Source: Nemertoderma westbladi (Eukaryota; Animalia; Xenacoelomorpha). From it: 64,000 nucleotides of DNA. Position 1 is the first letter of the stretch. Every line of letters starts with the position of its first letter. The stretch lies in contig JAUCBJ010009083.1 in the NCBI GenBank assembly GCA_032718475.1, positions 110,353 through 174,352 of the forward strand, read 5' to 3'. A program made the translations under genes and the position numbers. The notes below the pieces were generated by a model, which was not told where the DNA came from, ran no database searches, and saw nothing but the letters and a program-made list of their open reading frames with translations. Shown here one piece after another: positions 9,784-46,278 of the stretch.

Positions 9784-9851
9784 AAAATGGGATTTGAGTC
9801 TATAAAATATACAAAATCACAGTTTCTAATATACGTAAATACTCTAAACAG

Positions 9852-11288: not shown

Positions 11289-12910
11289 ATCTGCTATCTG
11301 AGTTTATTAATATCAATATAAGTTAATATTTTAGGCAAGCGGGCGTCGCTGCCTACTAGGCTTTTGCCCCCGGACAGTGGGTTTCTCAGCGCCGATGTAC
11401 CGCTGTCGCAGTGTTTACGCCAACATGTAGCAACAGCACGACAACGATAACCGGCACAAGTCCCACCACTGTCCGTCCCAAAGGCTTGAATCCACTTGAG
11501 GTTATCTCGGTAGAATTAGGGCTATTTTACAATTGCGATTAGCTACTGTAAACACACTTTAGTAGTAACATTCACCTATAAACGCACAAATTCCATACAA
11601 TCATTGCTTACTGCACACATGCATGCCATTTGTCCGTTAGTCAGTGTCTTCCAGAATGTCACGTTATTACTATGTATCCTTGGATACTAATAGTGCGCTA
11701 TATATACTCTTATGCTACGCAATGGGGCAAGCCTTTTATTGTTCCTTTAACTTGCTTCTAATTCTAGCGTGGGTGTTGCCATGGTGACATTATGGAAAAC
11801 TAGCGGTAGAATTAGGGTAATTCTCATGCATACAGATCTGGGATGTTATTTAATAGTAATTCTTTAATTGTCAATATCCTCTTTATGCATGATTTTATAA
11901 AATTTATCGGTTATTGACTATATATTGGAGATTCTCGCACTCTAGTACACTCAATATGAATCTCCGCTCCCATGATCTATTAATTACTGGAATTTTGGGA
12001 ATGTTATAAATTGCACAAAATGACAATTTATGAAATTCATTTGAATATGAATTTAATTTATTCCCGTGAATTTTATTATTTGATGTTAAAATTGACACAA
12101 TTTGATTCCAGAGCAGGTCTGGGGACATAGGATCCTTAATTCTATGAAATTTGTCTTTTAAGAGTATCGGTAAGGGCTACGATATCTTAATCGACTAGAA
12201 TTGTTAACGGATCTGAATTTTACAGATTTTAATAAATATTAAATTAATATTTAGGATGGGCACCGATTTATTCCAGAACTTGTCTGGGGACGTTAACCAC
12301 TGATTCTAGAATTTGTCTTTCAAGTATATCGGTGGGTGCCACGATATCTTAATCGACTAGAATTACAGATGGTCAAAAAGTTTAACAGATTTATTTGCGA
12401 ATTACGCTACTGTTAAAGGGACATCACGCTACTATATGTATTATTTGTTATAAGGTAGAAGAGCAATATCGCACGAAGCAATGTCAGTGTGAAGAGGCAA
12501 GTCGTTTCCAAGGTCTACCCAGAGCTTGGTTTAGCCGAGACACGAGGATCTGAACTTTGCATTCCTAATACTCTGCCTACCAATAATACTTGAATATAGT
12601 AGTGGCTTTATTGTACTTTAAGAAGTACGGACATTTCATCTTACTGTAGTCACGTATTTATAATATGATACGGACAGTAAGGGAAGAGAAAATAATTATT
12701 TCTCGCCGTCGCACTAAATATATATTATAAGTAATTATGTACGTAATAAACACTAATATATTGCACTAATTTACTAAATTTTCTAAAATAACATTTTACT
12801 AAATAAAATTAAAGAAAACGATTATAATAAAATTACATAATAATACATACATAAATATAAAATAAAAACAAATATAAAATGATATAGCCACACGCCCACT
12901 CCATATGTTA

Positions 12911-15900
12911 TTACGTTATAGAGTCCCTAGATATTTGTCGGATTAGGGAAGTGGTCGTAGGAAGAGTATCTTGCCTTCCATAGTTTCCGGACAGTTTTCG
13001 GTCTCTTTCCAGTAAACATAAACGACCAGCTGGGCGATTGAGTTGTTGTGTTAGTTTCTCCGCTCCCTTGGCCTGTCTACTCTCTGCCGTGGTAAGATGA
13101 GGAGGCCATTCTTCTTCTTCTTTACTTAAGGAGTCGGATCCACCTAACCAGCCTGGAGTATCTATCAGTTCTTGAGGAGTTGCTCCTCTGGAAGCGATGT
13201 CGGCTGGATTAATCGTCCCAAGGCGATGTCTCCATTGATCTACATTGGCGTTAATATCGTCATTATCTGAGGAGTATGGTGTTACCTCAGTGGGTTCGTC
13301 CACTTCACTGCTCCCCTCTTCCCAATCCTTTACTTGAAGTAGCCGGTCTTGTGGCAATCTTTCTTCAAGAGTTCTGCGGGAAGGGCCAGTAAAGTACCAA
13401 CCTACTCTAGTTCTTACCGCATAAGTTTGTAATGGCTGCGGTTGAGCAGGCCGTTTCTCCAATGTCTCGAGCGCCTCATGCGCGTTTTGGCCGATGAGGA
13501 TTTGCACTCCAGGATAATCGGTTTGGAATCGAGGTATCTCAAGATGTTGGATGCACTCGTCCTCATCCCAGTTATAAAGGTCTGCTTGGGTAGTAGCGAA
13601 GTTCTTTATAGCCACCATTTTTACTGACCTTATACTTTGTGCTCCTAATTTATCCTGGGGGGTGGACAACTCACCTACATAGTAATCTGCCGTTAGGGTA
13701 GATTTCCAAACCTGCATAATTCCTGACATATTCAATTTAGTCCGGAACTTGGGTTGTCCAGCAAAGATATCTTCGGCTAGTTCTTGATCGATGAATGTTC
13801 CTGTGCTGCCGGAGTCAAGTAGGGCGTTCACTATGTAACTCTTGTTGAGACCATGAACTCTCACTTGCACTACAGGAAATTCTCTTATTCCTATGTTGGA
13901 AGTTGGAACTTTCCAAGATGGTTGTTTGTCAAAAGGAGTTGGAGTAAACTCGTCAGTGTCCTTTTCATACGTAAGTGCTCGATACACTGTGGTATTTATT
14001 AGATAACAGGATTCGTTGGCATCGGAGAATTCGTCTGTATAGAATCCTTCCCACTCAGAACCTTGGTCAGTGTCGTTCACATCACTGAATTGGACATGTA
14101 GTTCGGGCTCACTTACCTGACTCGGGTTGTCTCGTTCGAACTCACTGTGTAACAAGATGTGATGTTTCGCGCCACACTTTGCACACTTTACGTCGGAGTA
14201 ACAGGTTCGCCGTTGGTGTCCTGATCTGAGGCAATTATAGCATAACCGCTTATTCCACAGGACTGTACGTCTGTCTACAGGGGATTTCTTTAGAAATTCA
14301 GCACACGCACTCAAACGGTGGGGCCCGTCGCACAGCGCACATTTTGGTTTGATGTTACTCACTTTACCTTGGGTAACGTTATGCACTCTCGTTCTTTCTT
14401 CGGGCTCTCTTCCGTGAATTCTCTTAGGAGACTGAGGAGGGGTCTTGGCAACCTGTTCTCTCCTATCGTTGTTTCGAGCCTTGTATTTACTTACGTCCTT
14501 TGAGGTCTTGTCAACATAATAAGATCGGTCTGTGTCTTTCCCGCTGTCCTCTTCTTGGGAAGCTTGGCTTTCGCCGTCGTCAGTGTAACACACTGGTGTT
14601 ACTCTTCTCCTAGAAGTGGGTTTCTCACTTACCTTATTTTCCGATGTTTTCTCTCTGGACTGCTTGATGAGTTGTAGTTTGACTTCACCATTTAAGAAAG
14701 ACATGAGATCAGCCATGGTAGGGCTTCGTCGTTGTTGTTCATTCATGTACAACACTTTCTTGTCCCAACGTGTACATACTCCACCCTTTGGTAAAGTAGA
14801 GACTACGGCTCCAATAACCATGGAACTCTGATATTCATGCGACTTACCTAACCAGTCCAGTTGTCTACAGATCTCTTGAATTTCATCGGAAAACTCTATA
14901 ATCCCGCTACTAAGGAAGTGTCGGGGGGCTACTAATTTTGCATATAAATACTTAGCTATGTTATCCTTGTTACCATACCTGATGTTTAATGTATCCCAAA
15001 CTTGTCTTAATCCTTCTGGATGTCCGATAAACTTTAACGCCATTAACTTGGGAGGTCCTTCCAAGCACTTGATGAGGAATCTAAGTTTCTCTCCGTTAGA
15101 TAGTACAGAGTTCTGTATGCTATCTTTGTAATATTCGTTGAAAGGTAACCATTTCATCTCATCTCCATTGAATTTGACGATCTCTCCCACTTTGACCGCT
15201 TGGCGGGCTTCTGTTCTAGCCATCTGACGCGTAAAGCTTTCTTGGGCCATCGTGTTATTTAATATCGAATTATCGGTATATAAATTTCTCGGATCATTAT
15301 CAGGTCTATAGGGAATATCATTAATAACAGGTCTATAATCACCCTTAATAGGGTTTGCTATAGGAGTTTCTACTTCACTAGCAGTATAGATGCGTGTAGG
15401 CTCCACACCTTGCGCATGTAATACTTCAGACCTAACAGGTGGACACAATGTTACAGGGGGTATGGGTATGCCCTTTTGAATATTGACTAATTTGTCGCGT
15501 TCTAGTGCGATACTTTGCTGCACTTCTTGCAACTCTGCTCTACTTTCCCTCACTGTTCCCTTAAGTTGGTGGACAGTCTCCTGCATCTGTCCCAGCAGGA
15601 GATTCATCCCCCGCCGTCCCTCTTCCATCCACTCAACCGCCGAAGCGGGAGTCGCCAACATTGTAGCGGGCAGACGCGAGACGACGGGAGACAAATTTTT
15701 GATTTCTCTCTCGGCGTCCAAGACAGGGATATTCTCATGGACTGTTCTACCGGGTACAGGCAGTGTAGTACTGTGTAAAGGGAATTTAGAATTAAGTTCT
15801 GGAAGTACAGGGGTCTCTAGCACAGGAGTGACTTTGGGAACGACAGGCCTAACTATTTCCGGCTCATCTACTATAGTAGGGAGTCTATTTACGGTAATAA

Positions 15901-17062
15901 TTTGGTCTGTGGGTTCTGTACTACCTAAGTCTGTGCTAGCTAGTTGTCTTCTGACAGCTGGGGGCAAATCAGGCAGTTTATGACGGTGAGATGTTTTTCT
16001 ACGCCTGCTTAGACGAGATCTATTTCCTCCGCCTTCAGGATCGGTGGTTTCGCTTTCCTCCGATGATGTGTATCCCTGGCGTTTTGGAGTAGATCGTCTC
16101 ATCCTCTGCATTCGACTAGCAGTTAGATGTTTATTTATGTAGTCTTGCGTCTCTTGCAGATTTTCCAACTCCAGTTGGGCAGTCTCCTCAGACGCTCTCC
16201 GTTCTGCTTCTGCCACTGCCTTTGCCATTGCCGCTGCCGCCTTTCTTTCTGCTTCTGCTACCGCTGCCTTTCCTTTTGCTTCTACATCCGCTGCCTTTCT
16301 TTATGCTTCTACTTCTGCCGCCGCCTTAGCTGCTTCTGCTTCTGCCGCCTTTACTGCTGCTGCCTTTCGGTTCTCTATCTGTTTTTTCTTTATTTGTTCT
16401 TCTTGGACTCTAACGAGGCGAAGTTTTTCATCACATTTAGCTTGTTCTGCAGCTAACATTTCCGCATCGATTGCGTCCAACACAAGCTTGGTTCCTTCAC
16501 TATTAGGGCGAAGTCCAGACAGTCGTCTCCTCAACTCTTCGTCTCCTATGAATCGCTGATAGTCTGACAGATATATGTCAATGGCGTCTCTAGTTCGCAG
16601 CTTCTCTGCGGCCGTTAATTCGCTTTCCACTTCGCTTTCCACTTGAGAAGAAGTGGCGTCGGCTGATTCTTCATAGGTTGGCCGCTCATCATAAACCGTA
16701 TCCGCCTTCTTCGCTCCGCGTTCAGGTGTCCGCTCAGCAGTATCCGAACTACTGGAGCTATCGGGACGCTGAGAACTAGGTTCTTGGCTAGGATGTTGCT
16801 GCGGTTTGACAGCTGCTTCTTGATCCCGCTTGACTTGGGCGCAAGTGCCGATGATAGACCTACGCTGTTCTACTAGCCTAGGGTCTGACACTACTACTGT
16901 AGGGGTGGCCTTTCTTACAATAGTAGGTGACTTAGACTTGGATCTGGGATGTTCTATACTTTGATCTTGGTCACAGATCCTTTTAATACGCTGTCTAAGT
17001 CTAATACTCATTCTAACACTTTCTAAGAGACTATCTGACAGTGATTGGGTTGCGTCTGACAT
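12911..17062 (-). pseudogene. BEL/Pao Gag-protease polyprotein, unit A; RT and integrase deleted; in-frame TAA at 16301-16303 (1105-aa ORF from ATG 16228 remains)
   Basis: DUF1759-like KFNGDEMKWLPF...LSNGEKLRFLIKCLEG; BEL triple knuckle CALCDGPH/CYNCLRSGH/CAKCGAKHHILLH; protease ALLDSGS and ILIGQ; then directly the RNase H tail QWRH..NPADIASRG. Confidence 0.92.
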
Positions 17063-18324
17063 GTTTGTTTACACAGTTGAATGCCTACGGCTATAAATAC
17101 AGTCAAAGTAAGTCTAGTAATTCAGTATCACCGTTAGCCTAACAATTAATTACCGATACTGCTACTCAGTGTAGCGTGATATATATATAATATATTAGAA
17201 TACCGGTATGCTTATAGTATATATATAAGTATTATTACAGACTAGATTTGTCACAGAGTACCGGTATATAATTTTAGCACAAATATATATAAATATATAT
17301 AATAAGCCTATGGTAAGTACCGGTATGTCAATTATTTTTTAGAATAATTGAATTTCTGAATATTTTAGGGTTACTTGGTTACTTTAACTTACTTTATTAC
17401 CGTTATTTAAGCAGTAGTCCAACTGATAGTGAGACCTAGTTGTTGTATGACAGGCCTACTATTTATAAATCGTTTGAGTTGATTTATAATATTTATATAC
17501 CCGTTTAAATGGGTTTTTGTCAATATTTGAAATAAATGTTATTATTTCTGGGGGAGTCACTACACAGAAGCTGTGCGCTCTCAGTGAAGTGCTACCTATG
17601 GGACACTAAAACAGATAATTCTAATTTACCTAAGTTACTTAATACTACAAATTACTTACGATACGGGTGAGATTAAATCTCTAGTTAAACACAACAAAAA
17701 TATTACGTACGAAATTTTTAGGGTAATTTTACAGGAAGTCTACAAACCAGCCCAACAAAGGGTTAGAATTCTGGTTATTACAACGGACAGGGTACTACGG
17801 TATTTGAAAATAATAAGTAGTAGTAAATACACTGCGTTGTCCAGATAGGAAAATACCACCGCCTGACGACCTATAACCGTATCGCTATAGGTACTACGTT
17901 CTGTATCACGGATTGTTCCTACCTAGAAGTTAATTACCGCGGACTACCAGATCCAGCGTGCCTATTAACCACTTTACAACACAAATATACTGCCTACACA
18001 CTAATTACTTCGGAAAGCACTGTACACTAAACCCTAAATTAGGTACAAGTACTGGTATAACAAATAATCAGCAGTTAAATATACTTGAACAGTTAAAAGA
18101 ACCACGGCATCTGCTGGAGTGACCGAAGCACAAAGTCACCAGTCTTTACCTACGCCAAGCTGCCCGTGTAGTACCGGGGTTAATTTAACTATAACGGTAT
18201 GTGTAACAAACACAATTACTGTAGGAATAAACTTGGGGACATGAATGTTGCGAATAATCGCATAAACTCTGAATAATAAATATTACGCTACCCGTACAGA
18301 ATACTCAAACAAAATACAAACCAA

Positions 18325-18845
18325 ACGCTGGCAGACTACTATCAAGCCTAAACAAACTACAGTATGTGCAGATTCTGAAACTGTTAGTTAGTATGCGTTC
18401 TAACACGGTAGTACGACTTACTCTTTAAGAGGGGATTGACCTTACCGCATATGGCTGCCCCAACTTACTAACGGCACTTTATCAGACCAACTCTACACAC
18501 GCAGCAATCCCTTCAGGCCTAAGAATAGTTAGACAACAATCCAGCCTACAAAATATCTGAGTAATAACTATTACGGTACCTGAACAGACCACACAAACAA
18601 ACACAGGCTAAAACACTGGCAGACTACGATCAAGCCTAAATAAACTACAGTATATGCAGACTCTGAAACTGTTAGTTAGTATGCGTTCTAACACGGTAGT
18701 ATGACTTATTCTTTAAGAGGGGATTGACCTTACCGCATATGGCTGCCCCAACTTACTAACGGCACTTTATCAGACAAACTCTACACACGCCGTAATCTCT
18801 CCAAACTCAACAACAGTCAGACAGCAGCTCAGCCTACAATTATCT
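18325..18845. repeat. About 290-bp tandem duplication in the leader of unit A (same duplication at about 27210-27735 in unit B)
   Basis: The block CTGGCAGACTAC...GTATGCGTTCTAACACGGTAG...GGGGATTGACCTTAC...CTCTACAC occurs twice in each unit. Confidence 0.85.
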
Positions 18846-19123
18846 GAACAATCTGAGCAGGGTCACACGCCTTCTGCTCAATATTAGCCTACTAGGAAAT
18901 AAAACTGACAGAAATAGACCTAAGTAAAATCCCAATAAAAACCAGGCGTCCCCGATTTAATATCGAGACCTACCGGTATACAATAATCAAAATCGAATAA
19001 TACTAAATGTATTTGTACAGCAGTACCGGTTAGGACAGTTGGGCCTACAGACCTACAGAAATACCGGTTACTACGGTATTTTGCAACCTTATTGCCTACT
19101 GCAATAAGATCATAAACTGTTAC

Positions 19124-20318
19124 TGTTCGCGCTTTTGAAGACCTTTAGCAGTTTAACCTGCCAAAATTTATATGTCTTTTAGTTAATTAAAACACCTTTA
19201 GCATACGACAATATTTTATGTTAATACGCAAAACATTAGCCGAAGTCAGCCCATGCGCGATCATTCACCCGATGGATCTACACCCGGGAGGCTGAATTCG
19301 GATGCTTAAATTTTATTATTGCAGTGTAAGGTTGCAGCGTAAACTTACTGTATTATTCGATAGATCGTTAATAATTAATTTCTGACAGATATTATTGGCT
19401 TTTCGGGAAATATTAACAGTTCCTTTAGGACGTGGCGCTCTATCTATTTAAACAGAACTAGGACTTATACTAAACGCAACGATACTGCTTATGATTAAAG
19501 TATAAAGCGTATTCTTTAGGAAATACTTTGTTACCAATCACAATCATGCACACTATTCTGCCGACCGTCAGTATATTTGATCACACATAAAGAGAGCAGT
19601 AATTGACTCATGTAGGGTCTGCTAAATAACATTAGATTCAATACACACCACATTAATATAAATCGCAATTGTTATATATAACCTGTCTCTCTAACCTGTA
19701 GTGTATCAAGAAAATTGGGAAATTTGGGTGATTTATCCGTATTATCCAAAGAGTAATATTTCCATCAACAAATAGATACAATTAATAACTGACGGTAAAT
19801 AACAGTACAAACAATATGATTAATAGTGAGTTAAGATTGATTAGTTAGGTGATTTAAGTTAGGTAACAGTTTATACTTTCGATAATTTAAGCAGTTTTAC
19901 TAGAGCTCTTCCCAAAAAGCCGGTGTTATGGCGAAAATGGGAACACAACAACAGAATCATATAAAATCATATGACTACTGCCACTATACGAGTATACCAA
20001 AAACCCTTATTCCACGAAGCCCCGTTCAACACAGAGGATGAGCATAGAGATAGGAAATTCAGTTCAGTAGCGCTGGGATAGGTCGAAATCAACGCCTACG
20101 CAAATTCTATTGGCCGACACGAACAGCAAGGCTAAGGCAACCTCTCTAAGCTAGTTGGCCGATTAAACTGAGCCCAGATATCTCCGTATAGCACATCAGC
20201 CAATAAGCTGGTAGCTTGCACTATTTTAGTTATAAATCCCTTTGAGAGTATTCTAGCGACTGGGGGGGAACTGGCCAGCAAAGGCAAACGTATCAGTTAT
20301 CCCACAAAAGCTTTCACA
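19124..20318 (-). repeat. Middle LTR (type II), diverged from the outer LTRs
   Basis: TGTTCGCGCTTTTGAAGACC...AAGCTTTCACA. Alignable to type I over about the first 600 bp and the last 90 bp; the segment at about 19890-20230 is largely unalignable. Confidence 0.9.
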
Positions 20319-21617
20319 CACACACAGGCCATTTGTCCGTTAGTCAGTGCCTTCCAGAATGTCACTTTATTACTGTGTATCCTTGGATACTAACAGTGTG
20401 CTATGTTCTCTATGCTAGGCAATGGGACAAGCTTTTTATTGTTCTTTTAACTTGCTTCTAATTCTAGCGTGGGTGTTGCTATGGTGACATTATGGAATGC
20501 TAGCGGTAGAATTAGGGTAATTCTCATGCATACAGATCTGGGATGCTATTTAATAATAATTCTTTAATTGTCAATATCCTCTTTATGCATGATTTTGTTA
20601 ATTTTATCGGCTATTGACTATATGTTGGAGATTCTCGCACTCTAATACACTCAATAGGATGAATCTCCGCTCCCATGATCTATTAATTAATGGAATTTTG
20701 GGAATGTTATAAATTGTACAAAATGACAATTTATGAAATTCATTTAAAAATATGAATTTAAATTTATTCCCATGAATTTTATTATTTGATGTTAAAATTG
20801 ACACAATTTGATTCCAGAGCAGGTCTGGGGACATAGGATCCTTAATTCTATGAAATTTGTCTTTTAAGAGTATCGGGAAGTGCTACGATATCTTAATCGA
20901 CTAGAATTGTTAACGGATCTGAATTTTACAGATTTTAATAAATATTAACTTAATATTTATGATGGGCACCGATTTATTCCAGAACTTGTCTGGGGACGTT
21001 AACCATTGATTCTAGAATTTGTCTTTCAAGTATATCGGTGGGTGCCGCGATATCTTAATCGACTAGAATTACAGATGGTCAAAAGGTTTAACAGATTTAT
21101 TTGCGTTTTACGCTACTGCTAGAGGGACATCACGCTACTATATGTATTATTTAATATAAGGTAGAAGAGCAATATCGCACGAAGCAATGTCAGTGTGAAG
21201 AGGCAAGTCGTTTCCAAGGTCTACCCAGAGCTTGGCTTAGCCGAGACACGAGGATCTGAACTTTGCATTCCTAATACTCTGCCTACCAATAATACTTGAA
21301 TATAGTAGTGGCTTTATTGTACTTTACTAAGTACGGACATTTCATCTTACTGTAGTCACGTATTTACAATATGATACGGACAGTAAGGAAAGAGAAAAAA
21401 TAATTATTTCTCGCCGTCGCACTAAATATATTATAAGTAATTACGTACGTAATAAACACTAATATATTGCACTAATCTACTAAATAATCACTAAAATAAC
21501 ATTCTACTAAATAAAATTAAAGAAAACGATTATAATAAAATTACATAATAATACATACATAAATATAAATAAAAACAAATATAAAATGATATAGTCACAC
21601 GCCCACTCCATATGTTA

Positions 21618-24600
21618 TTACGTTATGGAGTCCCTAGATATTTGTCGGATTAGGGAAGTGGTCGTAGGAAGAGTATCTTGCCTTCCATAGTTTCCGGACA
21701 GTTTTCGGTCTCTTTCCAATAAACATAAACGACCAGCTGGGCGATTGAGTTGTTGTGTTACTTTCTCCGCTCCCTTGGCCTGTCTACTCTCCGCCTTGAT
21801 AAGATGAGGAGGCCATTCTTCTTCTTCTTTACTTAAGAAGTCGGATCCACCTAACCAGCCTGGAGTATCTATCAGTTCTTGAGGAGTTGCTCCTCTGGAA
21901 GCGATGTCGGCTGGATTAATCGTCCCAAGACAATGTCTCCATTGATCTACATTGAAGTTAATATCGTCATTATCTGAGGAGTATGGTGTTCCCTCAGTTG
22001 GATCGTCCACATCACTGCTCTCCACTTCCCATTCCTTTACTTGGTATACCTGTTGTTGAGGTAATCTCTCTTTGAGAGTTCTACGGGAAGGGCCAGTGAA
22101 GTACCAACCTACTCTAGTTCTTACCGCAACGGTTTGTAGTGGCTGCGGTTGAGCAGGCCGTTTCTCCAATGTCTCGAGCGCCTCATGCGCGTTTTGGCCG
22201 ATGAGTATTTGCACTCCAGGATAATCTGTCTGGAATCGAGGTATCTTAAGATGTTGGATGCTCTCATCCTCGTCCCAATTATAAAGGTCTGCTTGAGTAG
22301 TAGCGAAGTTCTTTATAGCCACCATTTTTACTGACCTTATACCTTGTGCTCCTAAGTTATCCTGGGGGGTGGACAACACACCTACATAGTAATCTGCCGT
22401 TAGGGTAGATTTCTAAACCTGCATAATTCCTGACATATTCAATTTAGTCCGGAACTTGGGTTGTCCAGCAAAGATATCTTCGGCTAGTTCTTGATCGATG
22501 AATGTTCCTGTGCTGCCGGAGTCCAGAAGGGCGTTCACTATGTAACTTTTGTTAAGACCGTGAACTCTTACCTGCACTACAGGAAATTCTCTGATTCCTA
22601 CATTGGAAGTTGGAGCTTTCCAAGATGGTTGTTTGGCAAAAGTAGTTGGGGGAAACTCATTGTTGGTGTCCTTTTCATAAGTAAGTGCTCGATACACTGC
22701 GGTATTGATTAGATAACAGGATTCGTTGGCGTCGGAGAATTCATCAGTATAGAATCCTTCCATCTCAGATTCTTGATCAGTGTCATTTACATCACTGAAT
22801 TGGACATGTAGTTCGGGCTCACTTACCTGACTCAGTTTGTCTCGTTCGAACTCACTGTGTAACAAGATGTGATGTTTCGCGCCACACTTTGCACACTTTA
22901 TGTCGGAGTAACAGGTTCGCCGTTGGTGTCCTGGTCTGAGGCAATTATAGCATAACCGCTTGTCCCATACGACTGCACGTCTGTCTACAAGGGATTTCTT
23001 TAGAAATTCAGCACACGCACTCAAACGGTGGGTCCCGTCGCACAGCGCACAGTTAGGTTTTATGTTACTCACTTTACCTTGGGTAACTTGATGCACTCTC
23101 GTTTTTTCTTCGGGTTTTCTTCGGTGCATTCTGTTAGGAGACTGAGGAGGGGTCTTGGCAACCTGTTCTCTCCTATCGTTGTTTCGAGCCTTATATTTAC
23201 TTACGTCTTTCGAGGTTTTGTCAACGTAGTAATATCTATCAGTGTCTTTCCCGCTGTCCTCTTCTTGAGAAACTTGGCTTTCGCCGTCGTCAGTGTAACA
23301 CACCGGTGTTATTCTTCTCCTAGAAGCGGGTTTCTCACTTACCTTATTTTCCGATGTTTTCTCTCTGGACTGCTTGATGAGTTGTAGTTTTACTTCACCA
23401 TCTAAGAAGGACATGAGATCAGCCATGGTAGGACTTCGTCGTTGTTGTTCATTCATGTACAACACTTTCTTGTCCCAGCGTGTACATACTCCACCCTTTG
23501 GTAAAGTAGAGACTACGGCCCCAATAACCATTGAACTCTGATATTCATGAGACTTACCTAACCAGTCCAATTGTCTACAGATCTCTTGAATCTCATCGGA
23601 AAACTCTATAATCCCGCTACTAAGGAAGTGTCGGGGGGCTACTAATTTTGCATACAAATACTTAGCTATGTTATCCTTGTTACCATACCTGATGTTTAAT
23701 GTATCCCAGACTTGTCTTAATCCATCTGGATGTCCAATAAACTTTAACGCCATTAACTTGGGAGGTCCTTCCAAGCACTTGATGAGGAACCTAAGTTTCT
23801 CTCCGTTAGATAGTACAGAGTTCTGTATACTGTCTTTGTAATATTCATTGAAAGGTAACCATTTCATCTCATCTCCATTGAATTTGACGATCTCTCCCAC
23901 TTTGACCGCTTGGCGGGCTTCTGTTCTAGCCATCTGACGCGTAAAGCTTTCTTGGGCCATCGTATTATTTAATATCGAATTATCGGTATATAAATTTCTC
24001 GGATCATTATCAGGTCTATAGGGAATATCACTAATAACAGGTCTATAATCACCCTTAATAGGGTTTGCTATAGGAGTTTCAACTTCACTAGCAGTATAGA
24101 TGCGTGTAGGCTCCACACCTTGCGCATGTAATACTTCAGACCTAACAGGTTGACACAATGTTACAGGGGGTATTGGTATTCCCTTTTGAATATTGACTAA
24201 TTTGTCGCGTTCTAGCGCGATACTTTGCTGCACTTCTTGCAATTCGGCCCTACTTTCCCTTACTGTTCCCTTAAATTGATGGACAGTCTCCTGCATCTGT
24301 CCGAGCAGGAGATTCATCCCCCGCCGTCCCTCCTCTACCCACTCGACCGCCGAAGCGGGAGTCGCCAACATTGTAGCGGGCTGACGTGGGACGACGGGAG
24401 ACAAATCTTTAATTTCTCTCTCAGCTTCCAGGACAGGAATATTCTCATGGACTGTTCTACCGGGTACAGGCAGTGTAGTACTGTGTAAAGGGAACCTAGA
24501 GTTAAGCTCTGGAAGTACAGGGGTCTCTAGCACAGGTGTGACTTTTGGAACGACAGGCCTAATTATTTCAGGCTCATCAACTATTGTAGGGAGTCTTTTG

Positions 24601-25844
24601 ACCCGAATAATTTGTTCTGTGGGTTCTGTATTGCCTAAGTCTGCGCTAGTTAGTTGTCTTCTAACAGCTGAGGGCAAATCAGGCAATTTGTGACGGTGAG
24701 ATGTTTTTCTACGCCTGCTTAGACGAGATCTATTTCCTCCGCCTTCAGGATCGGTGGTCTCGCCTTCCTCCGATGATGTGTATCCTTGGCGCTTGGGAGT
24801 AGATCGACTCCTCATCTGCATTTGACTAGCAGTTAACTGTATATTTATGCAGTCTTGCGTCTCTTGATGATTTTCCAACTTCAGTTGTGTGGTCTCTTCA
24901 GACGCTCTCTGTTCTGCTTCTGCCAATACCATTGCTGCTGCTGCTTTGGCTGCTTCCACTGCCGCTGCCGCTTTTGCTTCTGCCTCTTCCACTGCCGCTG
25001 CCGCTTTTGCCGCTGCTACTGCCTTTGCCGCTTCCACTGCCGCTGCCGCTTTTGCCGCTGCTACTGCCTTTGCCGCTTCCACTGCCGCTGCCGCTTTTGC
25101 CTCTTCCACTGCCGCTGCCGCTTTCGCCGCTGCTACTGCCTTTCTGTCCTCTATCCGTTTTTTCTTTACTTGTTCTTCTTGGACTCTAACGAAGCGGAGT
25201 TTTTCATCAAATTCAGCTTGGTTTGCAGCTAACATTTCCGCATCGATTGCGTCCAACACAAGCTTGGTTCCTTCACTATTAGGGCAAAGTCCAGACAGTC
25301 GTCTCCTCAACTCTTCGTCTCCTATGAATCGCTGATAGTCTGACAGATAGATGTCAATGGCGTCTCTCGTTCGCGGCTTCTCTGCTGCTGTTAATTCGCT
25401 TTCCACTTCGCTTTCCACCTCGCTTTCCACTTGAGAAGAAGTGGCGTCGGTTGATTCTTCATAGGTTGGCCGCTCATCATAAACCGTATCCGCCATCTTC
25501 GCTCCGCGTTCGGGCGTCCGCTCAACAGTATCCGAACTACTGGAGCTATCGGGCCGCTGAGAACTAGGTTCTTGGCTAGGAGGTTGCTGCTGTTTTATAG
25601 CTTCTTCTTGATCCCGCTTGACTTGGGCCCGAGTGCCTATGGCAGACCAACGGCGCTTTACTAACTTCGCAAATTGCGAAATCGCTCCTACCAACCTAGG
25701 TTCTGACACAACCACTGCAGGGGTTGCCCTTCTTACAGTATGAGGGGTTTCAGACCTCGGTCTGGGATTCTCTACACTTTGATCTGAGAAACAGGCTGTT
25801 GTTTCTAGGAGACTATCTGACAGAGTTTGCCTTGTGTCAGCCAT
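21618..25844 (-). pseudogene. BEL/Pao Gag-protease polyprotein, unit B; RT and integrase deleted; in-frame TAG at 22413-22415
   Basis: Close paralog of unit A with the same motifs and the same deletion. TGG(W) in unit A corresponds to TAG here, within the protease region. ORFs 22413-25844 and 21618-22379 are in the same frame. Confidence 0.92.
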
Positions 25845-27910
25845 GTTTGATTGTACAGTTGAATGCCTACTGCTATATTACAGTTAAAGCAAGTCTAGTA
25901 ATTCAGTATCACTGTTAGCCTAATAATTAATTACCGATACTGCTACTCAGTGTAGCGTGATATATATATAATATATTAGAATACCGGTATGCTTATAGTA
26001 TATATATAAGTATTATTACAGACTAGATTTGTCACAGAGTACCGGTATATAATTTTAGCACAAATATATATAAATATATAATAGGCCTATCGTGAATACC
26101 GGTATACAGCCTACACTTATAGTATATAAGTATAATTCTGGACTATAATTAATTACAGAGTACCGGTATGATTTCAGCACAAATTTATAGAAATAAATAT
26201 AATAAGCCTATGGTAAATACCGGTATGTCAATTATTTTAAAATAATTGAATTTCTGAATGTTAGGGGTTACTTGGTTACTTTACTTACTTTATTACCGTT
26301 ATTTGAGCAGCAGTCCAACTGATATTAAGACCTAAGTGTTGTATAACAGGCCTACTATTTTATTAATAGATTTAGTGGATTTATATGTACCCGTATGAGG
26401 GGTTTTGTTACAATATTGAAATAGATGTTACTATTTCTGGGAAGTAATCACTACACAAAAGCTGTGCGCTCTCAGTGAAGTGCTACTTATTAGACACTAA
26501 AACAGATAATTCTAATTTACCTAAGTTACTTAATACTACAAATTACTTACGATACGGGTGAGATTAATTCTCTAATTAAACACAACAAAAATATTACGTA
26601 CAAAATTTTAGGGTAATTTTACAGGAAGTCTACAAACCAGCCTAACAAAGGGTTAGATTTCTGGTTATTACAACGGACAGGGTACTACGGTATTTGAAAT
26701 AATAAGTAGTAGTAAATACACTGCGTTGTCCAGATAGGAAAATACCACCGCCTGACGACCTATAACCGTATCGCTATAGGTACTACGTTATGTATCACGG
26801 AGTGTTCCTACCTAGAAGTTAATTACCGCGGACTACCAGATCCAGCGTGCCTATTAACCACTTTACAACACAAATATACTGCCTACACACTAATTACTTC
26901 GGAAAGCACTGTACACTAAACCCTAAATTAGGTACAAGTACTGGTACAACAAATAATCAGTAGTTAAATATACTTGAACAGTTAAAAGAACCACGGCATC
27001 TGCTGGAGTGACCAGAGCACAAAGTCACCAGTCTTGTCCTACGCCAAGCAGCCCGTGTAGTACCGGGGTTAATTTAACTATAACGGTATGTATAACAAAC
27101 ACAATTACTGTAGGAATAAACTTGGGGACATGAATGTTGCGAATAATCGCATAAACTCTGAATAATAAATATTACGCTACCCGTACAGAATACTCAAACA
27201 AAATACAGACCAAACGCTGGCAGACTACCACCAAGCCTAAATAAACTACTGTATGTGCAGATTCCAAAACGGTTAGTTAGTATGCGTTCTAACACGGTAG
27301 TACGACTTATTCTTTAAGAGGGGATTGACCTTACAGTTATGACTGCCCCAACTTACTAACTGGCACTTTATCAGACAAACTCTACACAAGCAGCAATCTC
27401 TTCAGACCTAATAATAGCTAGACAACAATCCAGCCTACAAAATATCTGAGTAATAACTATTACGGTATCTGAACAGACCACACAAACAAACACAAGCCAA
27501 AACGCTGGCAGAATACTGTCAAGCCTAAATAAACTACAGTATGTGCAGATTCCAAAATTGTTAGTTAGTATGCGTTCTAACACGGCAGTACGACTTATTC
27601 TTTAAGAGGGGATTGACCTTACAGCGATGGCTGCCCCAACTTACTAACTGGCACTCTATCGGACAAACTCTACACACGCCGTAATCTCTCCAAACCCAAC
27701 AACAATCCGACAACAGTCCGACCTACAATTATCTGAACAATCTGAGCAGACTTACACGTCTTCAGCTCAATATTAACTTACATGTAAATAAAACCGACAG
27801 AAATGAGTAAAATCTCAATAAAAAACCAGGGCTGCAGTCCCTGATTAAATACTAAGACCTACCAGTATACAATAATCAAAATCGAATAATACTAATGTAC
27901 TTATACTGGA

Positions 27911-28035
27911 AGTACCGGTTAGGACAGTTGGGCCTACGGACCTACAGAAGTACCGGTTCTGGCAGTTGGACCTACGGACCTACAGCAGTACCGGTTCTGG
28001 CAGTTGGGCCTACTGACCTACAGAAGTACCGGTTC
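27911..28035. repeat. 38-bp tandem repeat in the leader of unit B (3+ copies; 1+ copy in unit A near 19020)
   Basis: AGTACCGGTT(AGGA/CTGG)CAGTTGGGCCTACGGACCTACAG(A/C) starting at 27911, 27949 and 27987. Confidence 0.85.
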
Positions 28036-28089
28036 AGGTTTACCGGTTGACCGGTACTTTCAACTTTATTACTTACTGCAATAAAGTCA

Positions 28090-28100
28090 ATGACTGTTAT
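28090..28100 (-). other. Non-tRNA primer-binding site complementary to LTR 28864-28874 (self-priming candidate)
   Basis: Plus-strand ATGACTGTTAT at 28090-28100 is the exact reverse complement of ATAACAGTCAT at 28864-28874. The equivalent pair in unit A is 19112-19123 / 19863-19874. Confidence 0.75.
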
Positions 28101-29378
28101 TGTACGCGCTTTTGAAGACCTTTAGCAGTTTAACCTGCCAAAATTTATATGTCTTTTGGTTTATAAATATACTTTAGAAGATGACAAATATTTAATACCA
28201 ATAAACACAACATTAGCAGAAGCCAGCCTAGTGCGCGTCCATTCACCCGCTGGATAATCCCAGGAGACTGGATTCTGAGGGCTTAAATTATTATTGCAGT
28301 GAAGCTTACGGTATTGTATTATTCGATTGATCGTTAATAATTAATTTCTGACTAATATTATTTACTTTCGGGAAATATTAACAGTTCCTTTAGGACGTGG
28401 CGCTCTATCTAAGTAAACAGAGATATGACTTATACTAATCACAACGGCAAGTCGGTAAGGCTTATGATTCACGTATGAGGCGCATTCTTTAGGAAATGCT
28501 TAGTTATCCATCACAATCATGCACACTACCGGTAACACACAATAGGCCTACTGCCCACTAATTTGCTGACCGTCAATGATTTTTATCATATATAAAGAGA
28601 ACAGCAACGGACCAATGTAGTGCTTATCAAATAGCATTAAATTCACTACAAACCACAACAATATAAGTCGCAATCGCTATATATAACCCGCCTCTCTAAC
28701 CTGTAGTGTATCAAGAAAATTGGGAAATTTGGGTTCTTTATATATGTTCTCCAAATAATATTCAACCAAAACACAACAGTAAACAGCATTAAGACGGTAA
28801 GCTAAGATATGATATGACAAGATGTGAACAAAGTATTGTTATGCATTGATATGAATCGTATTGATAACAGTCATACGCTCTATAATTTAAGCCTACTAAT
28901 GTTTCTTATAAAAGTATGAAAACGAATTGACTCTAGAGCCGTTGTTCCTGGCCTAGATAGCAATAACAACAAAGTATCAAGTAAAAAAAACAGTAAGACT
29001 GAACACACTCCTTATGATCGACCGAAAAGCTACACGTCGACAGGAAAAATCGCTCTGATTGGCTCAAGCCAAACAAAGAACCATGCGTCCAATGGCTGTT
29101 TCCATGTCAGCAACCAGCTGTTAGATGTCGTAATATGAATCATCACGGCTAAGCTATGAAAGGTATTTGCCGCATTGCAGGTTTTTTGTCTTACCATGTC
29201 CGCTAAAACACGTATATAGCAGAATGACTTTTATGTCCGTTAAAACACCTGTAACGGTACCTTGAGGGCGAGGGGAATATTTATACAGTTAGAGAACCTT
29301 TTTAGAGTATTCCAGCGCCTGGGGGGAAACTGGATTGCGAAGCAAAGGGCCCAGTTATATCCCACAGAAGCTTTTACA
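28101..29378 (-). repeat. 5' LTR (type I), 1278 bp
   Basis: Near-identical to 8497-9773. CCAAT boxes at about 29055-29095. TATAAG on the minus strand at 28905-28910. Confidence 0.95.
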
Positions 29379-30039
29379 ATATGGCATTTTGAAACCAGCT
29401 GATGGCGTTGCTTGGTACCCAGTTTAAAACCAATCAGGAAATAGTGATTCTAGTAATTTTAACGGCTCCTTAAAATTACAACCCCTCCCCAAACTATCGT
29501 TCCCTAAAGATTATTGCGGAGAACCCCCCCCCCCCCCCCCCCCCTGATTTCTTACTGCACTCTTACTGTACTTTCTTATGTATTCTTTATTTATATTTCT
29601 TATTAATAAGTTAAGTTAAATCCTTATTGTCAGGAGCTTTCGCCCCCATTCGTTATGCGATTTAACGGACACCATCAAACAAATTATTAAAATCAAAATA
29701 ATAATATTAAGATGAGGAGTATAAGATGTATATAATATAAGATGGGAGTATATTTCAACGAATCACAAAATAATATTGAACTGTAATTTATAATATATAG
29801 TATTCGCTATAAAAAGTGATATGATTGATACACCATGACCATACACCATATAGTCTCATTTTCTGATGACACCGCCCCCCACCCACAATTTGTATACGTA
29901 AATCTTTAACATATAGCTTGGAATATGGATCTGCGCTTGGATCTATGTCCCCATGAAGCCAAACTTTTTGATTTCACCTTTAAACTTTTAAGCGTATTAA
30001 AAAAGTGTATTTTGCGTAATCGAACACTCCGTATCATTG

Positions 30040-34599: not shown

Positions 34600-35390
34600 A
34601 TTACATTTGATAGTAAATCATAAAGTAACAAATCCCTGTCTACTCAGTCGAATGCTTTAGAAAAGTCAACGAAAAGCTGCAAAAGTAGGTTTACCACTAT
34701 CTAAACTAGTTTTTAAAATTGAATGTAGCAAGTAAATTGTGGTCTTCACAAGAACGACCCCCTTTTTTTTTTTTTTTATAGCTACACCCCGTGTCGGGGT
34801 AAAAGTTTTATTTCATAATTAATTGATAAAATATAAATAAAAAATAAGAATTAATATAACTCAATAAAAGTAATTTATAATAGCGTATCCCAGTAATATA
34901 TGTCACATCTTGGCCAGGTCGGATAGTGAAGGGCAGAGTTGACATGCTAAAGCGTGGTAGAACGACCCCCTTTACACCCATTCACAAGATTCAGGGACCA
35001 ACCAAACTGATAAAAATTGCCAACAAATCGACTAGCAGATTTAATAAAGCCTCCTGTTTCAAAACTTCATTGGGGATTCTTCATTGTCCGGTCTGATGGC
35101 TTTGTTGGATTTTAACTGATCGCTTTTATCACTTCGTCCTCGGCACTCATTCAAGTTGTTCCGGTCTGTATCATCAGTGTGACTAACTTCCGTATTAATA
35201 TCACGGCTGGGGTGGTTATCAGGTTTTTGATCTCTTCTTTCTCGGTGTTTAGAACTCCACCGTATTAAATACGGTTAAATTTTGGTTTCCAGGTCCTCTA
35301 CGCATTTTCTAGAATGCCATTTGTAATGTTGTTTTTTTCGCCAAGTACGATTAAATTTATCTGAAGTTTCGCACCCAAGAAGGTCAGCGT
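34600..35390 (-). pseudogene. Degenerate LINE reverse transcriptase fragment
   Basis: The minus strand at about 34640-34680 translates LFVDFSKAFD*VDR. Upstream is the pre-RT-like 'EDEVIKAI'. Heavily disrupted. Confidence 0.6.
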
Positions 35391-35454
35391 GCGATTTCTC
35401 GGGGGTTATAAACACTGAAATTTCAAATTCAAATTTCTTTCAAATTTCAAATTA

Positions 35455-36645
35455 CTTTCAAATTGACAGTTTAACATGTCATTTTGTCAAAATGTCACTT
35501 TCAAATTGACATTTTGACATGTCATTTTGCCAAAATGTCATTTTCAAGTTGACATTTTGACATGCTATTTTGTCAAAATATAATTTTCAAATTGACATTT
35601 TGACATGTCATTTTGCCAAAATGTCATTTTCAAGTTGACATTTCGACATGCCATTTTGTCAAAATGTCATTTTCAAATTGACATGTCATTTTGCTAAAAT
35701 GTCACTTTCGAATTGACATTTTGTCATGTCATTTTGTCAAAATGTCACTTTCGAATAGACATTTTGACATGTCATTTTGTCAAAATGACATTTTCAAATT
35801 GACATTTTGACATGTCATTTTGCCAAAATGTCACTCTCAAATTGACATTTTGACATGTCATTTTGCCAAAATGTCACTTTCGAATTGACATTTTGTCATG
35901 TCATTTTGTCAAAATGTCACTTTCGAATTGACATTTTGACATGTCATTTTGACAAAATGTCATTTTCAAATTTACATTTTCTCATGTCATTTTGCCAAAT
36001 GTCACTTTCGAATTGGCATTTTGACATGTCATTGTGTCAAAATGTCACTTTCGAATTGACACTTTGACATGTCATTTTGTCAAAATGTCACTTTAAAATT
36101 GACACTTTGACATGTCTTTTTGTGAAAGTGTCACTTTCAAATTGACATTTTGACATGTTATTTTGACAAAATCTCACTTTCAAATTGACATTTTGACATG
36201 TCATTTTGCCAAAATGTTACTTTCGAATTGACATTTTCTCATGTCATTTCGCCAAAATGTCACTTTCGAAGTGACATTTTGACATGTCATTTTGCCAAAA
36301 TTTCACTTTCGAACTGACATTTTGACATGTCATTTTGCCAAAATGTCATTGTGTCAATATGTCACTTTAAAATTGACAGTTTAACATGTCATTTTGTCAA
36401 AATGTCACTTTCAAATTGACATTTTGACATGTCATTTTGACAAAATGTCATTTTCAAATTGACATTTTGACATGTCATTCTGCCAAAATGTCACTTTCGA
36501 ATTGACATTTTGTAATGTCATTTTGCCAAATGTCACTTTCGAATTGACATGTCATTTTGCCAAAATGTCAATATGTCGCTTTCAAATTGACAGTTTAACA
36601 TGTCATTTTGTGAAATGTCACTTTCGAATTGACATTTTGACATGT
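35455..36645. repeat. 43-bp palindromic minisatellite, about 28 copies
   Basis: Unit approximately TTCAAATTGACATTTTGACATGTCATTTTGCCAAAATGTCACT. Period 43 (35502, 35545, 35588). Confidence 0.95.
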
Positions 36646-36826
36646 GACGATCTCCAGGCAGTTTAGTACTTTAATGTTGCGATTCCCAGGCAGTTTAGTA
36701 TTTTAATTTTGCGATTCCCAGGCAGTTTAGTACTTTAATGTTGCGATTCCCAGGGAGTTTAGTACTTTAATGTTGCGATTCCCAGGCAGTTTAGTACTTT
36801 AATGTTGCGATTCCATTTAGTACTTT
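36646..36826. repeat. 32-bp tandem repeat, about 5.5 copies
   Basis: (GCGATTCCCAGGCAGTTTAGTACTTTAATGTT)n directly abutting the 43-bp array. Confidence 0.92.
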
Positions 36827-38464: not shown

Positions 38465-39151
38465 CTACTCTAATAAATTATCATTACTCCGCCTTTCTGA
38501 CGAGTCCCTACTCTGCAGACTCATTCCCTCTACCTGTCCACTCAGTTCGCTCATTCTACCCAGACCCGAATCATGGGACTCCGTCGCCGTGGTGACGCCG
38601 CTAGGCACCACGTGGTCTTTGTCCGCGGTGTGACCAGGGACCAGCGTTGCTAAGGTAAACAAAGAGGCCTGGCAACCAGCGCCACGCAGCGCGTCGTACA
38701 ACGTCCCCATGGTTACTGAGAGTTCGATTAAATTCTGGAAAAAGTAAAGGAAGTGAGACCGAGTGGCGCCGTCCACTCTGATACCCAGTTGCTTAGCAAC
38801 CGAGTCCCAGTTCTCGGACGCCATGACGACGGCTAACTGTCGCAGGGTCTCGTCCCTCAGACAGGATATCGGGCTGCTCGCCGCGTCCATATGGACCCCC
38901 TCGTCCACGTCCCCTCGTAGCGTCGCCAGGGTTCTAGCGGCGTTCGCGAACCCCAACTGATTGGCCAGTTGGTAGGCGGTGACCCCCCCGTAGGTCTCCA
39001 CCGTGAGGTCTGCGTGGCCCTCCACTGCTAGAGCGTGGAGCAGCTGCGAGTTGTTGGTCTCTACCGCGATGTGCAGGGAAGTCTTACCGGACTTGAGTTC
39101 GCGTTGATCGACTTCCGCACCGATCTGTATGAGTGCGTAAACAGCTGAAAT
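38465..39151 (-). CDS. IkB / NF-kB p105-C-terminus-like gene, last coding exon (ankyrin repeats, death-domain-like region, DSG degron)
   Basis: Acceptor TTTTCTGTCTCTTGTAG|ATT at 39152/39151, phase 0. Reads ISAVYALIQIGAEVDQRELKSGKTSLHIAVE...ETYGGVTAYQLA, then NWDSVAKQLG and LYDALRGAG (death-domain-like), then HDSGLGRMS. Confidence 0.85.
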   Translation of the reverse strand: MSAVYALIQIGAEVDQRELKSGKTSLHIAVETNNSQLLHALAVEGHADLTVETYGGVTAYQLANQLGFANAARTLATLRGDVDEGVHMDAASSPISCLRDETLRQLAVVMASENWDSVAKQLGIRVDGATRSHFLYFFQNLIELSVTMGTLYDALRGAGCQASLFTLATLVPGHTADKDHVVPSGVTTATESHDSGLGRMSELSGQVEGMSLQSRDSSERRSNDNLLE

Positions 39152-40523
39152 CTACAAGAGACAGAAAAGTAAATAACAGCTGATTACTCGCAAAAATAAA
39201 ACTGTAAACTATAAAATTAACTTTCGTTTATTGTTTTGGTTAGAATAAAATGCCACTGTAACCTGCTCCCTTCTCTTCATTGTTGGTTCACCGAACCAAC
39301 CGGGATTAATACGCCAAGACAATATAAATATTCGCCGAGAAGATATTTGCTTCAAATCTACCTCCCACTCCCCATTCTCAAATATTACAAAGGCATGCGG
39401 ATATCCGCATGAATATCCGATGGATATCCGCAAAAATCATGCGGATATCCGCGGATGCGGGTGCGGACATTCGCCACATCCCTATTACAAAGGCATATCT
39501 TTCATTATTGAACTCTTATAATATTGGCAGGTAATGCAATTGTATAGAACAGCCAGACACAATACTGCACAGTACATGATATGGAATGCAGTAAAAGTTC
39601 GCCAAATCCTTTAAAATTCGAATAAAGTCAAACGAGTTCGCGTAATACACGTGTCTAGCTTATATACTCAACATTACGGTTCGGTCATGGTTGGTAGGGT
39701 TTACACAAAAGATAATTTCTGTAAACTAAGACTCTATTGCACTATAGATATAGAGCTAGGTAGTTGCCAAAGTGTTGAAATCGTAAATATAACACAATTT
39801 AAATTATAAGAATTCCCTTTGTTATGAAATCTGGCGCAGTATATAAGAAATTCAGCGGAAACTGGATGTACCGTACCACACCGTACCGTACAATCCGTAC
39901 ATGCGATAATATACCAATACCGGTTCACATGGTTATGATTTGTCGGCGGGTGGTCCCTTTATGAAACACCACCACCCACACAGTTCGAGATCAGCCATGT
40001 AAATCTCGAACCCGTTCATCTGCATTATTTATCAAGACCAGTCACCAGTGTATTCATTTATGTTAGCAGATATTTCAGGAAGTCAATTCATGACAATCAG
40101 ACACTGCCATTGCATTAGTAGGCCTACCATAAACAAGATCACGCAAGGGTTGATCAGTTCATAGATCAGTTGTAGATAACAGAGACCAGCAGAACTCATC
40201 CGTCGTTTATGCAGGGTGGTTAAGGCTTTTTAGCAATGTAACAATGTCACACACCGTATTTGATTATTCAGCAATATACAGTCAGACAGTTATTATAATA
40301 CTGCGTATCGCATACAAAAGCCCAACACGATTCCATATCAATAGCAGTTATTGTATGATTGCATGGCACGCCAGGAGAAAATAAACACAGATTCTCAAAC
40401 AAAAGCAAAAATTCGACTCTGACTGTCGAAATTATACAAGCTGCCTGTAACACTAAAAAGAGTCTGCTATAATAATAATACAGTAATATGTCAGAAATGT
40501 ATAAAAAATAAAATTGTACTTAC

Positions 40524-41456
40524 TTTCCCCAACCTTGTAGCAACATGAATAGGCGCCTCCCCGTCGCTATTTGGCGCGCTCAACTTAATATCTTTACCGA
40601 AGTGCTTGTGTAACTGGTCGATGCATTCGGTTCGGTCTGCCATGGCGGATACATGTAGCGCGGTGTTCCCAGCCACGTCGTACACGTTGGGGTCGACGCC
40701 TGTGGAGCGGAGGAATCGTATTATTTGATGGAGGCCCTGGAGGCAGACGATGTGCAGCGGTCGCTGTCCGCTCAGATTTGCCTGGTTCACGGTCTGCGCG
40801 CAGTCTGGTTCGTAGAGTAGCACCGACAGTAGATTGTGTAGAACCAGGGACTGTCCGTGTCTGGCCGCCACGTGCAGAAGATTATCGCCGTCGTTATTCT
40901 GCACGCCAATCAGGGAGCGTTGCGCGTTCAGTACGTATTTGACGTCGCCGGAAGATGCGTAGTTGGAGAGCGCAAGGTAACTCTGTCGAGCCAACATGTA
41001 CGTCTCGTGGTTGTGTTCCAACGTGTGTTGGGAAGGTCCGAGTTCGGGAGATCTTTCAGGCTTCGGTTGGGCCGCGTTATCTGGAGTAAAAGTCCGAGGT
41101 ACTGTTTGTACCGGTACTGTAGTAGGAGGATCTAACGGTCGTTTCCCCGTATCTTGGACGGGTTTTTCAGTTACATCGGGCTCCTTTTTTACTTCTACCG
41201 AAGAATTATCCCAAAACCCCGCAACTAAGGACTGCGCATTCGGGTTGACCTTAAACTTTGGATTTTCAGCGGCGGGTAATTTAGTGAGTCGAGTGCGTAC
41301 GTTAGGCGCTCCGTCTTTATGCGGTAGAGGTAAAAAACCAGCAGTTACGGCGTGAGAATCGGTGGAAGTTCGAGGGACGTTGTCCGACTGCGATCTTGGA
41401 ATCCCAGGTCGTCCGCTAGAGGTGGGAGATTGTTGGCGTCTGGTTCTGTCTGACAT
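40524..41456 (-). CDS. IkB / NF-kB p105-C-terminus-like gene, first coding exon (spliced product about 539 aa)
   Basis: ATG at 41456; donor AAA|GTAAGT at 40524/40523, phase 0. ALSNYASSGDVKYVLNAQRSLIGVQNNDGDNLLHVA resembles the p105 pre-ankyrin segment. Ankyrin repeats follow: GQRPLHI, GNTALHV, GEAPIHV. Confidence 0.85.
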
Positions 41457-45487: not shown

Positions 45488-45946
45488 TATGTATATACAG
45501 TAGCTATGTCAAATCTATTATACAGTAGTTTGATTTAGTGCACTTATAATACTGTACTGTATTGAATGGCGTGCGAAGCGAGTAGAGACAATTTTTCCAC
45601 ATGTTCGCTCATGATACAGGTCCTGTATATATCCTAATCATTGAATTTTCAGGTTTTCACTGATTTGTCATTTTTCAGGTTGTCACTGATTTGTTCTTTT
45701 TCAGGTTTTCACTGATTTGTCCTATTTTTACACGAATTCCCTGACACTAGACGTATTTTACTTATTAAAGATTCTACAAACCAGGGACAAGATACGGTAA
45801 TAAATCAAATTTCCGCACAGCGATAATTTCTCGTATAACAGAAATTTGCTTCATACAGTCGGTATACAGTAATATATATGCGTACCAATAATTATTTTCA
45901 TATCAACATCTTTTCCTACATTTAATGAGGCAGTCTAATCATACTA

Positions 45947-46278
45947 TTTTAGTATTTTTAAACACACTCAATTCTTGTAAAATATCTATACTTTAATTAA
46001 TACAATTTTAGTATTTTTAAACACACTCAATTCTTGTAAAATATCTATACTTTAATTAATACAATTTTAGTATTTTTAAACACACTCAATTCTTGTAAAA
46101 TATCTATACTTTAATTAATACAATTTTAGTATTTTTAAACACACTCAATTCTTGTAAAATATCTATACTTTAATTAATACAATTTTATTATTTTTAAACA
46201 CACTCAATTCTTGTAAAAAATCTATAGGCCTACTTTAATAATAATACAATATTAGTATTTTTAAACACACTCAATTAT
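45947..46278. repeat. 59-bp tandem repeat, about 5.5 copies, resuming at about 47195-47258 after an insertion
   Basis: (TTTTAGTATTTTTAAACACACTCAATTCTTGTAAAATATCTATACTTTAATTAATACAA)n. Confidence 0.92.

Follow-up and report, generated by a model that had tools for sequence, protein, structure and literature searches.

How does a retrotransposon of BEL/Pao type begin minus-strand DNA synthesis when no tRNA-type primer-binding site (PBS) follows its long terminal repeat (LTR)? The question is raised by a compound element of 20.9 kb on the minus strand of a 64,000-nt stretch of a Nemertoderma westbladi contig (hereafter the window), in which two internal units, B and A, are bordered by LTRs of two types. 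The BEL/Pao elements make up the third large LTR superfamily of animals. Self-priming, to our knowledge, is proven for Tf1 only and predicted for Tf1 relatives and one plant copia lineage. According to the accessible text of PMC7175516, the 11 bases that open the Tf1 transcript pair with the PBS and the RNA is cut between bases 11 and 12. The ICTV profile of the Belpaoviridae lists a PBS of 18 nt, for the 3' end of a tRNA, and calls BEL/Pao replication 'poorly understood' (PMC8742986). We consider it likely that the window element uses RNA of its own to prime minus-strand DNA synthesis, in the manner of Tf1 of fission yeast. A first-pass annotation had proposed tRNA-independent self-priming in a BEL/Pao element at this locus; as far as sequence allows, this stands for a BEL/Pao-derived element and is strengthened by duplexes like those around the Tf1 primer and by four distant relatives.

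The 5' LTR of the whole element (type I, 1278 nt, TG...CA) lies at 28101-29378 and opens unit B, and the middle LTR (type II, 1195 nt, 19124-20318) serves as the 5' LTR of unit A; all element features given here lie on the minus strand. Where the LTRs end does not depend on the PBS argument, because a 5-bp target-site duplication (TSD), CATAT, flanks the element (29379-29383, second copy 8496-8492) and because a paralogous empty site at 6844-7025, an intact copy of the small repeat hit by the insertion, has a single CATAT. Starting with the first base past the LTR, the predicted PBS of unit B (28100-28090) is the exact complement of an 11-nt segment of the type I LTR (28874-28864), and the predicted PBS of unit A (19123-19112) is that of a 12-nt segment of the type II LTR (19874-19863). 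In both types this putative self-primer is unique within its own LTR, the match is bounded by a mismatch at each end, and the primer's 3' nucleotide opposes the first base after the LTR's CA; positions, exactness and register are all as first annotated. The annotation was also right that no tRNA PBS starting with TGG follows either 5' LTR: neither LTR end has a TGG within 40 nt, and the 18-nt PBS for a tRNA 3' end expected of BEL/Pao elements is not found. In abutting the LTR and complementing about 11 nt of it, the predicted PBS is arranged as in Tf1.

Matches of this length are rare in shuffled sequence. Among 20000 dinucleotide shuffles of each LTR, the observed length was reached by 10 for type I (P 0.0005) and by 3 for type II (P 0.00015, with LTR-II taken 2 nt short at its start), and shuffling the PBS gave P values of 0.002 and 0.0015; because the LTRs are homologous, the type I and type II tests are not independent. 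When the match was started elsewhere in the leader, an equal length was found at 3 of 565 alternative start points in unit B and 1 of 565 in unit A, all belonging to one other conserved helix. The two types also differ in a way that preserves the pairing. Three matched changes (T-A to C-G at the primer 3' end, G-C to A-T, and one extra A-T pair) separate them amid LTR sequence that elsewhere in that region is 38-57% identical per 40 nt, which bears out the compensating change between PBS and LTR first noted there. Cross-pairing between the types is weaker (8 and 6 nt), and a single external primer could pair with both PBSs over at most 9 nt, with G-U pairs allowed. Variation within the family was read from short DNA contigs, with 40 of 49 type II variants listed: of these 40, the type II primer has none and the 25 nt that follow it have 15, with depth also dropping there. 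The type II PBS has one variant among those listed, at +1 (19123), which amounts to 12-20% of depth and equals the type I letter; another variant, at 19127, reaches ~30% of depth. Of the 15 joints listed for type I, 3 have their end at 28861-28863, immediately 3' of the primer.

Self-priming of Tf1 needs a three-duplex 'pretzel', as the accessible part of bioRxiv 2022.12.06.519325 describes it, and both of its flanking duplexes can form here at homologous places in the two LTR types, one of them with a matched change. On the 5' side the last 9 LTR bases pair with 28233-28241 (8/9 paired; an A-T pair of type I is T-A in type II), and on the 3' side 28084-28075 pairs with 28291-28300 (10 bp, the same in both types). 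A segment at -18 to -7 upstream of the primer (28882-28893) can further pair with 28291-28280, between the two pretzel partners, over 12 bp in type I (P 0.01) and 11/12 in type II (P 0.23), with one matched change. Other predicted helices surround these: a hairpin shortly before the LTR end (28121-28142), possibly U5-IR-like, which is the same in both types and has a pair probability of 0.95-0.96; a hairpin directly 3' of the PBS (28063-28087), an alternative to the 3' pretzel duplex that stays paired through one double change and two that affect one side only; and a 12-bp helix pairing LTR (28316-28327) with leader (27892-27881), unchanged between the units. When the fold is cut off at 60 nt past the LTR, the interior primer:PBS pairs have a probability of 0.84-1.0, and at 12 nt it is also near 1.

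Self-complementarity of the same kind was found in distant BEL/Pao relatives. A scan of metagenome contigs gave 80 BEL/Pao loci at ~25% protein identity, of which 26 were dropped for having <400 nt upstream; the window LTRs had no blastn match to the 80 loci. Among the 54 retained, 36 show a CA...TGG start, 14 allowed no call and four (L030, L044, L047 and L072) lack it; these calls used a list of motifs, and several of the 36 are near-copies. In all four, the PBS pairs over 9-10 nt in register with the element's own LTR (P 0.0005-0.0045), and tRNA-type controls pair over only 3-5 nt (10/10). The LTR ends were set by a repeat boundary (L030), by a terminal inverted repeat (L072) or by eye (L044 and L047, whose P values are thus optimistic). 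The LTRs of the four are 533-863 nt long; the match sits 52-128 nt away from the LTR end and abuts or spans a GT-AG junction predicted in the LTR itself (167-221 nt intron), and in L044, L047 and L072 the PBS pairs best with such an exon-exon junction. The PBS of L044 opens with the same six bases as that of unit A. The four fall in one pol clade (SH-aLRT 100 in a quick tree of 38 rows), which also takes in L024 and L055, for which the contig does not include the PBS. Because intact single-ORF BEL/Pao elements show self-complementarity, acquisition of the LTRs from a self-priming gypsy lineage, one of the origins first suggested for the trait, is unneeded.

Less of the first annotation holds for the origin of the primer, which had been taken to be the first 11-12 nt of the transcript. 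TATAAG does lie 31-36 nt upstream in type I (28910-28905, -36 to -31), as annotated, but type II has no TATA-like word within 60 nt upstream of the primer, and the T|A step described as initiator-like is a mere pyrimidine-purine dinucleotide. For the -18 to -7 helix to form, transcription would have to start upstream of -18 or the 3' LTR copy to supply the upstream arm; among the four relatives, a primer that spans a predicted splice junction would be internal to the transcript. A transcription start site (TSS) at the primer is thus weakly supported, with no TATA-like word in type II and a conserved helix that starts 18 nt upstream; with the predicted internal primer of the relatives, this leaves the original claim unsupported. 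We would give about half the weight to a capped transcript 5' end, as in Tf1, and about a third to a primer inside a longer 5' segment; a primer from the 3' LTR copy may be a third option. Contigs from one sequencing run, presumed to be RNA, leave 28778-28885 uncovered and favor none of these.

RNA processing near the primer was considered as well. In both types there is a GT ahead of the primer and, 175-180 nt downstream, a conserved site resembling an acceptor, the stretch that separates them being prone to indels; the site belongs to a conserved block at 28690-28740 that holds the putative splice acceptor ~175 nt past the primer start. The donor sites are weak, above all in type II. A splice-built primer was rejected for the window element, since the contiguous match of 11/12 nt compares with 3 and 0 nt at consensus-type junctions; one that used a non-consensus GT within the primer would pair over 10/11 nt, but with the +1 pair lost. 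There is no AATAAA in LTR I and none conserved near the primer site; a poly(A) site at the primer has no AATAAA in its favor and may still be entertained.

Self-priming here would begin with annealing of the LTR segment to the PBS in genomic RNA, inside a loop closed by the two LTR:PBS-adjacent duplexes. Reverse transcriptase (RT) and RNase H would come in trans from an autonomous relative, and by analogy to Tf1 the RNase H would cut the RNA 3' of the primer:PBS duplex. The freed 3'-OH would then be extended through ~750 nt of LTR and the extended product transferred to the 3' LTR. A number of findings weigh against this scheme. Covariation shows pairing, not priming, and it comes from two LTR types only, those readable in full; the variants at 19123 and 19127 have no partner change among those listed, although type I contigs were probably not placed there. 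Taken singly, neither pretzel duplex stands out significantly from shuffled sequence (P 0.08-0.18). Once the fold includes 150 nt of leader, primer pairing drops to ~0.66 in unit B and 0 in unit A, because of competition with LTR:leader helices or a pseudoknot against them, the nested model excluding pseudoknots. The loop between primer and PBS is ~750 nt long, compared with 52-128 nt in the four relatives. Finally, across 604 gag-protease columns the window element forms a long branch without clear placement and is not grouped with the four; joining it to their clade is not rejected (p-AU 0.385), a result that does not establish kinship.

Other explanations have to be set against these findings. 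The pairing might be structural, masking or positioning the PBS as a switch for packaging, dimerization or translation while another host RNA primes, which we judge unlikely. Such a role would suit a leader rich in conserved helices, some of them mutually exclusive, as well as the loss of the primer duplex from the longer nested fold of unit A, and covariation does not separate it from priming. However, both types and four distant relatives have a duplex that stops precisely at the LTR boundary, as a mere structure need not, and no alternative primer site is visible, a common external primer being held to <=9 nt. We likewise hold it very unlikely that the element is primed by a half-tRNA, cut in the anticodon loop as in copia, Ty5 and some plant copia lineages, with the LTR match secondary. 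The PBSs share an invariant core, TAACAG, which is the complement of CUGUUA and is complementary to an Asn (GUU) anticodon loop. One tRNA would nevertheless pair over only 8 nt, from +2, with both PBSs; the LTR carries a match for each difference between these, that at +1 included, for which a tRNA primer would give no need, and among the four relatives three differ in their PBS core. Half-tRNA priming is itself described in the accessible text of PMC6317226 and PMC3592414, in plants for copia lineages only.

It is very improbable, in our view, that the complementarity is a product of chance or a relic, left by a small inverted duplication in an ancestor and without present role. Several other perfect inverted repeats of 9-13 nt do occur in each unit, and the two LTR types share common ancestry. 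Against this stand the three matched changes amid unalignable flanks, the exact register with the LTR end and the recent insertion, with 3 differences between the LTRs; because the element inserted so recently, its PBS would have been in use.

What kind of element, then, would be priming itself? The 3' LTR (type I, 8497-9773) is 99.77% identical to the 5' LTR, with 3 differences between them, and the element is young. The internal region of unit B (20319-28100) comprises a 2.26-kb leader, a stop-terminated gag-protease ORF (25844-22413) and, directly after its stop, an ORF bearing an RNase H tail (22412-21618), and is truncated at the middle LTR. In unit A (9774-19123), gag is spread over two consecutive ORFs (17068-16301 and 16300-12911) that carry DUF1759, three zinc knuckles, protease and an RNase H tail in frame, followed by an extra 3' ORF (10889-9852) and a short polypurine-tract-like stretch (9774-9782) adjoining the 3' LTR. 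TG...CA termini, TSD and polypurine tract (PPT) before the 3' LTR are the structure of a BEL/Pao element, and BEL-type gag (DUF1759 in both units, E 3e-12 and 6e-12; three zinc knuckles) and aspartic protease are present, with motifs that align with BEL/Pao; the best protein matches of the element carry Peptidase_A17 and DUF5641. In tblastn searches with six full-length relatives as queries, RT, most of RNase H and integrase were found in neither unit, the matches being confined to gag, protease and an RNase H tail of 40-90 residues. Lacking the RT-RNase H-integrase pol, the element is a non-autonomous BEL/Pao derivative and not a full family member, and because these pol domains are missing, RT, RNase H and integrase would be needed in trans.

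The internal regions of units A and B are 84-98% identical per 500 nt, and the compound structure likely arose by a nested insertion followed by recombination that deleted the second type II LTR. The extra 3' ORF (9852-10889) encodes 293 aa from its ATG, with Cys/His clusters, a basic tail and a weak zinc-knuckle Pfam match (E 0.03). The predicted 5' leader of unit B (25845-28874, ~3 kb) holds 14 upstream ATGs, so that splicing, an internal start or a different promoter is likely required for gag to be translated. The element family is abundant and diverse in DNA runs under the same organism label. Among 1.84 billion protein representatives there was no close relative below E 1e-30, the best matches being 24-42% identical, and six window proteins were absent from the searched collection. 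An exact search with the conserved LTR end matched no viral or metagenome contig, a BEL pol alignment search of viral contigs gave no confirmed locus, the 64-kb window contains no tRNA gene, and no Rfam match at gathering level was obtained at 8000-30000.

Comparison with known systems separates the mechanism from the lineage. The feature is real and, as read from the DNA, appears to work like Tf1 self-priming, while the element is no member of Tf1/sushi: that assignment was rejected, its proteins being of BEL/Pao type. With Tf1, Tf2 and Tj1, of the Tf1/sushi group of Ty3/gypsy chromoviruses, it shares the lack of a tRNA-type PBS, a PBS after the CA that complements an 11-nt LTR segment, and the possible pretzel duplexes, as far as the accessible texts describe these (PMC7175516, bioRxiv 2022.12.06.519325). 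Unlike that group, it has a BEL/Pao gag (DUF1759) and RNase H tail and no chromodomain integrase, its LTRs measure ~1.2-1.3 kb with ~750 nt from primer to PBS, it has the extra conserved -18 to -7 helix, and a TSS at the primer is only predicted. Like the Belpaoviridae (Semotivirus), it combines DUF1759 gag, three zinc knuckles, protease, an NPAD-type RNase H tail, TG...CA LTRs, a short PPT and a 5-bp TSD; it departs from them in lacking the 18-nt tRNA PBS (PMC8742986), RT, most of RNase H and integrase. In its PBS it also resembles the clade of L030, L044, L047 and L072, which likewise have long LTRs, in-register self-complementarity and no tRNA-type PBS, but whose match is best at or across a predicted GT-AG junction, whereas that of the window element is contiguous and far upstream.

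The accessible portions of the literature describe self-priming for Tf1/sushi, and for Tcn1 and the TAR lineage of copia they predict it (PMC6317226, PMC4600332, PMC5341516, PMC3601003). For the TAR lineage (Houba and Osr-1, plant Ty1/copia) and Tcn1 chromoviruses, as here, the prediction was made from PBS:LTR complementarity alone, and TAR shows that self-priming had already been suggested outside gypsy, although it belongs to another superfamily and kingdom and the accessible text of PMC6317226 reports nothing on BEL/Pao. The cyclization of Ty1 through CYC5/CYC3, as outlined in part of PMC3592414, could be a model for the -18 to -7 helix if the upstream arm is the 3' LTR copy; Ty1, however, is tRNA-primed, and the window helix is a predicted pairing whose 5' partner lies within the LTR. 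Two BEL/Pao surveys (PMC554778, PMC3118150) contain no mention of PBS, tRNA or priming in their term-searchable text, and a literature search, with most subscription journals, GyDB and Repbase outside its reach, found no report of self-priming in BEL/Pao.

Beyond the element, the window holds host genes as single uninterrupted ORFs, namely CFAP300 (2053-2841), a cold-shock-domain protein (4957-5817), an SBF-like transporter (49704-50768) and an ionotropic glutamate receptor (56281-59046), which suggests an intron-poor animal genome; an ankyrin gene (38465-41456) contains a GT-AG intron. Tandem arrays lie at 35333-36814, 45882-46294 and 54083-54256, with units of 43, 32, 59 and 29 nt.

A broader model can be offered tentatively, and we rate it as possible but doubtful. 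A whole animal BEL/Pao lineage may have dropped tRNA priming for an LTR-derived RNA primer that is not simply the first bases of the transcript and that host splicing builds in some members; in the window element, the primer would sit in a four-helix junction, anchored 18 nt upstream by a second pairing, and within a segment open to removal by splicing, and RNA processing would then decide between mRNA and replicating genome. Should self-priming itself be true, such a BEL/Pao lineage would represent a further origin of the mechanism, or an old retained state, and would bear on whether tRNA priming or hairpin priming arose first. A BEL RNase H would then be able to cut an RNA:RNA junction, and the elements would escape host control through tRNA fragments. 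LTR finders that depend on a PBS would miss or misjudge elements of this kind, and the two LTR types offer ready natural compensatory variants with which the mechanism could be tested.
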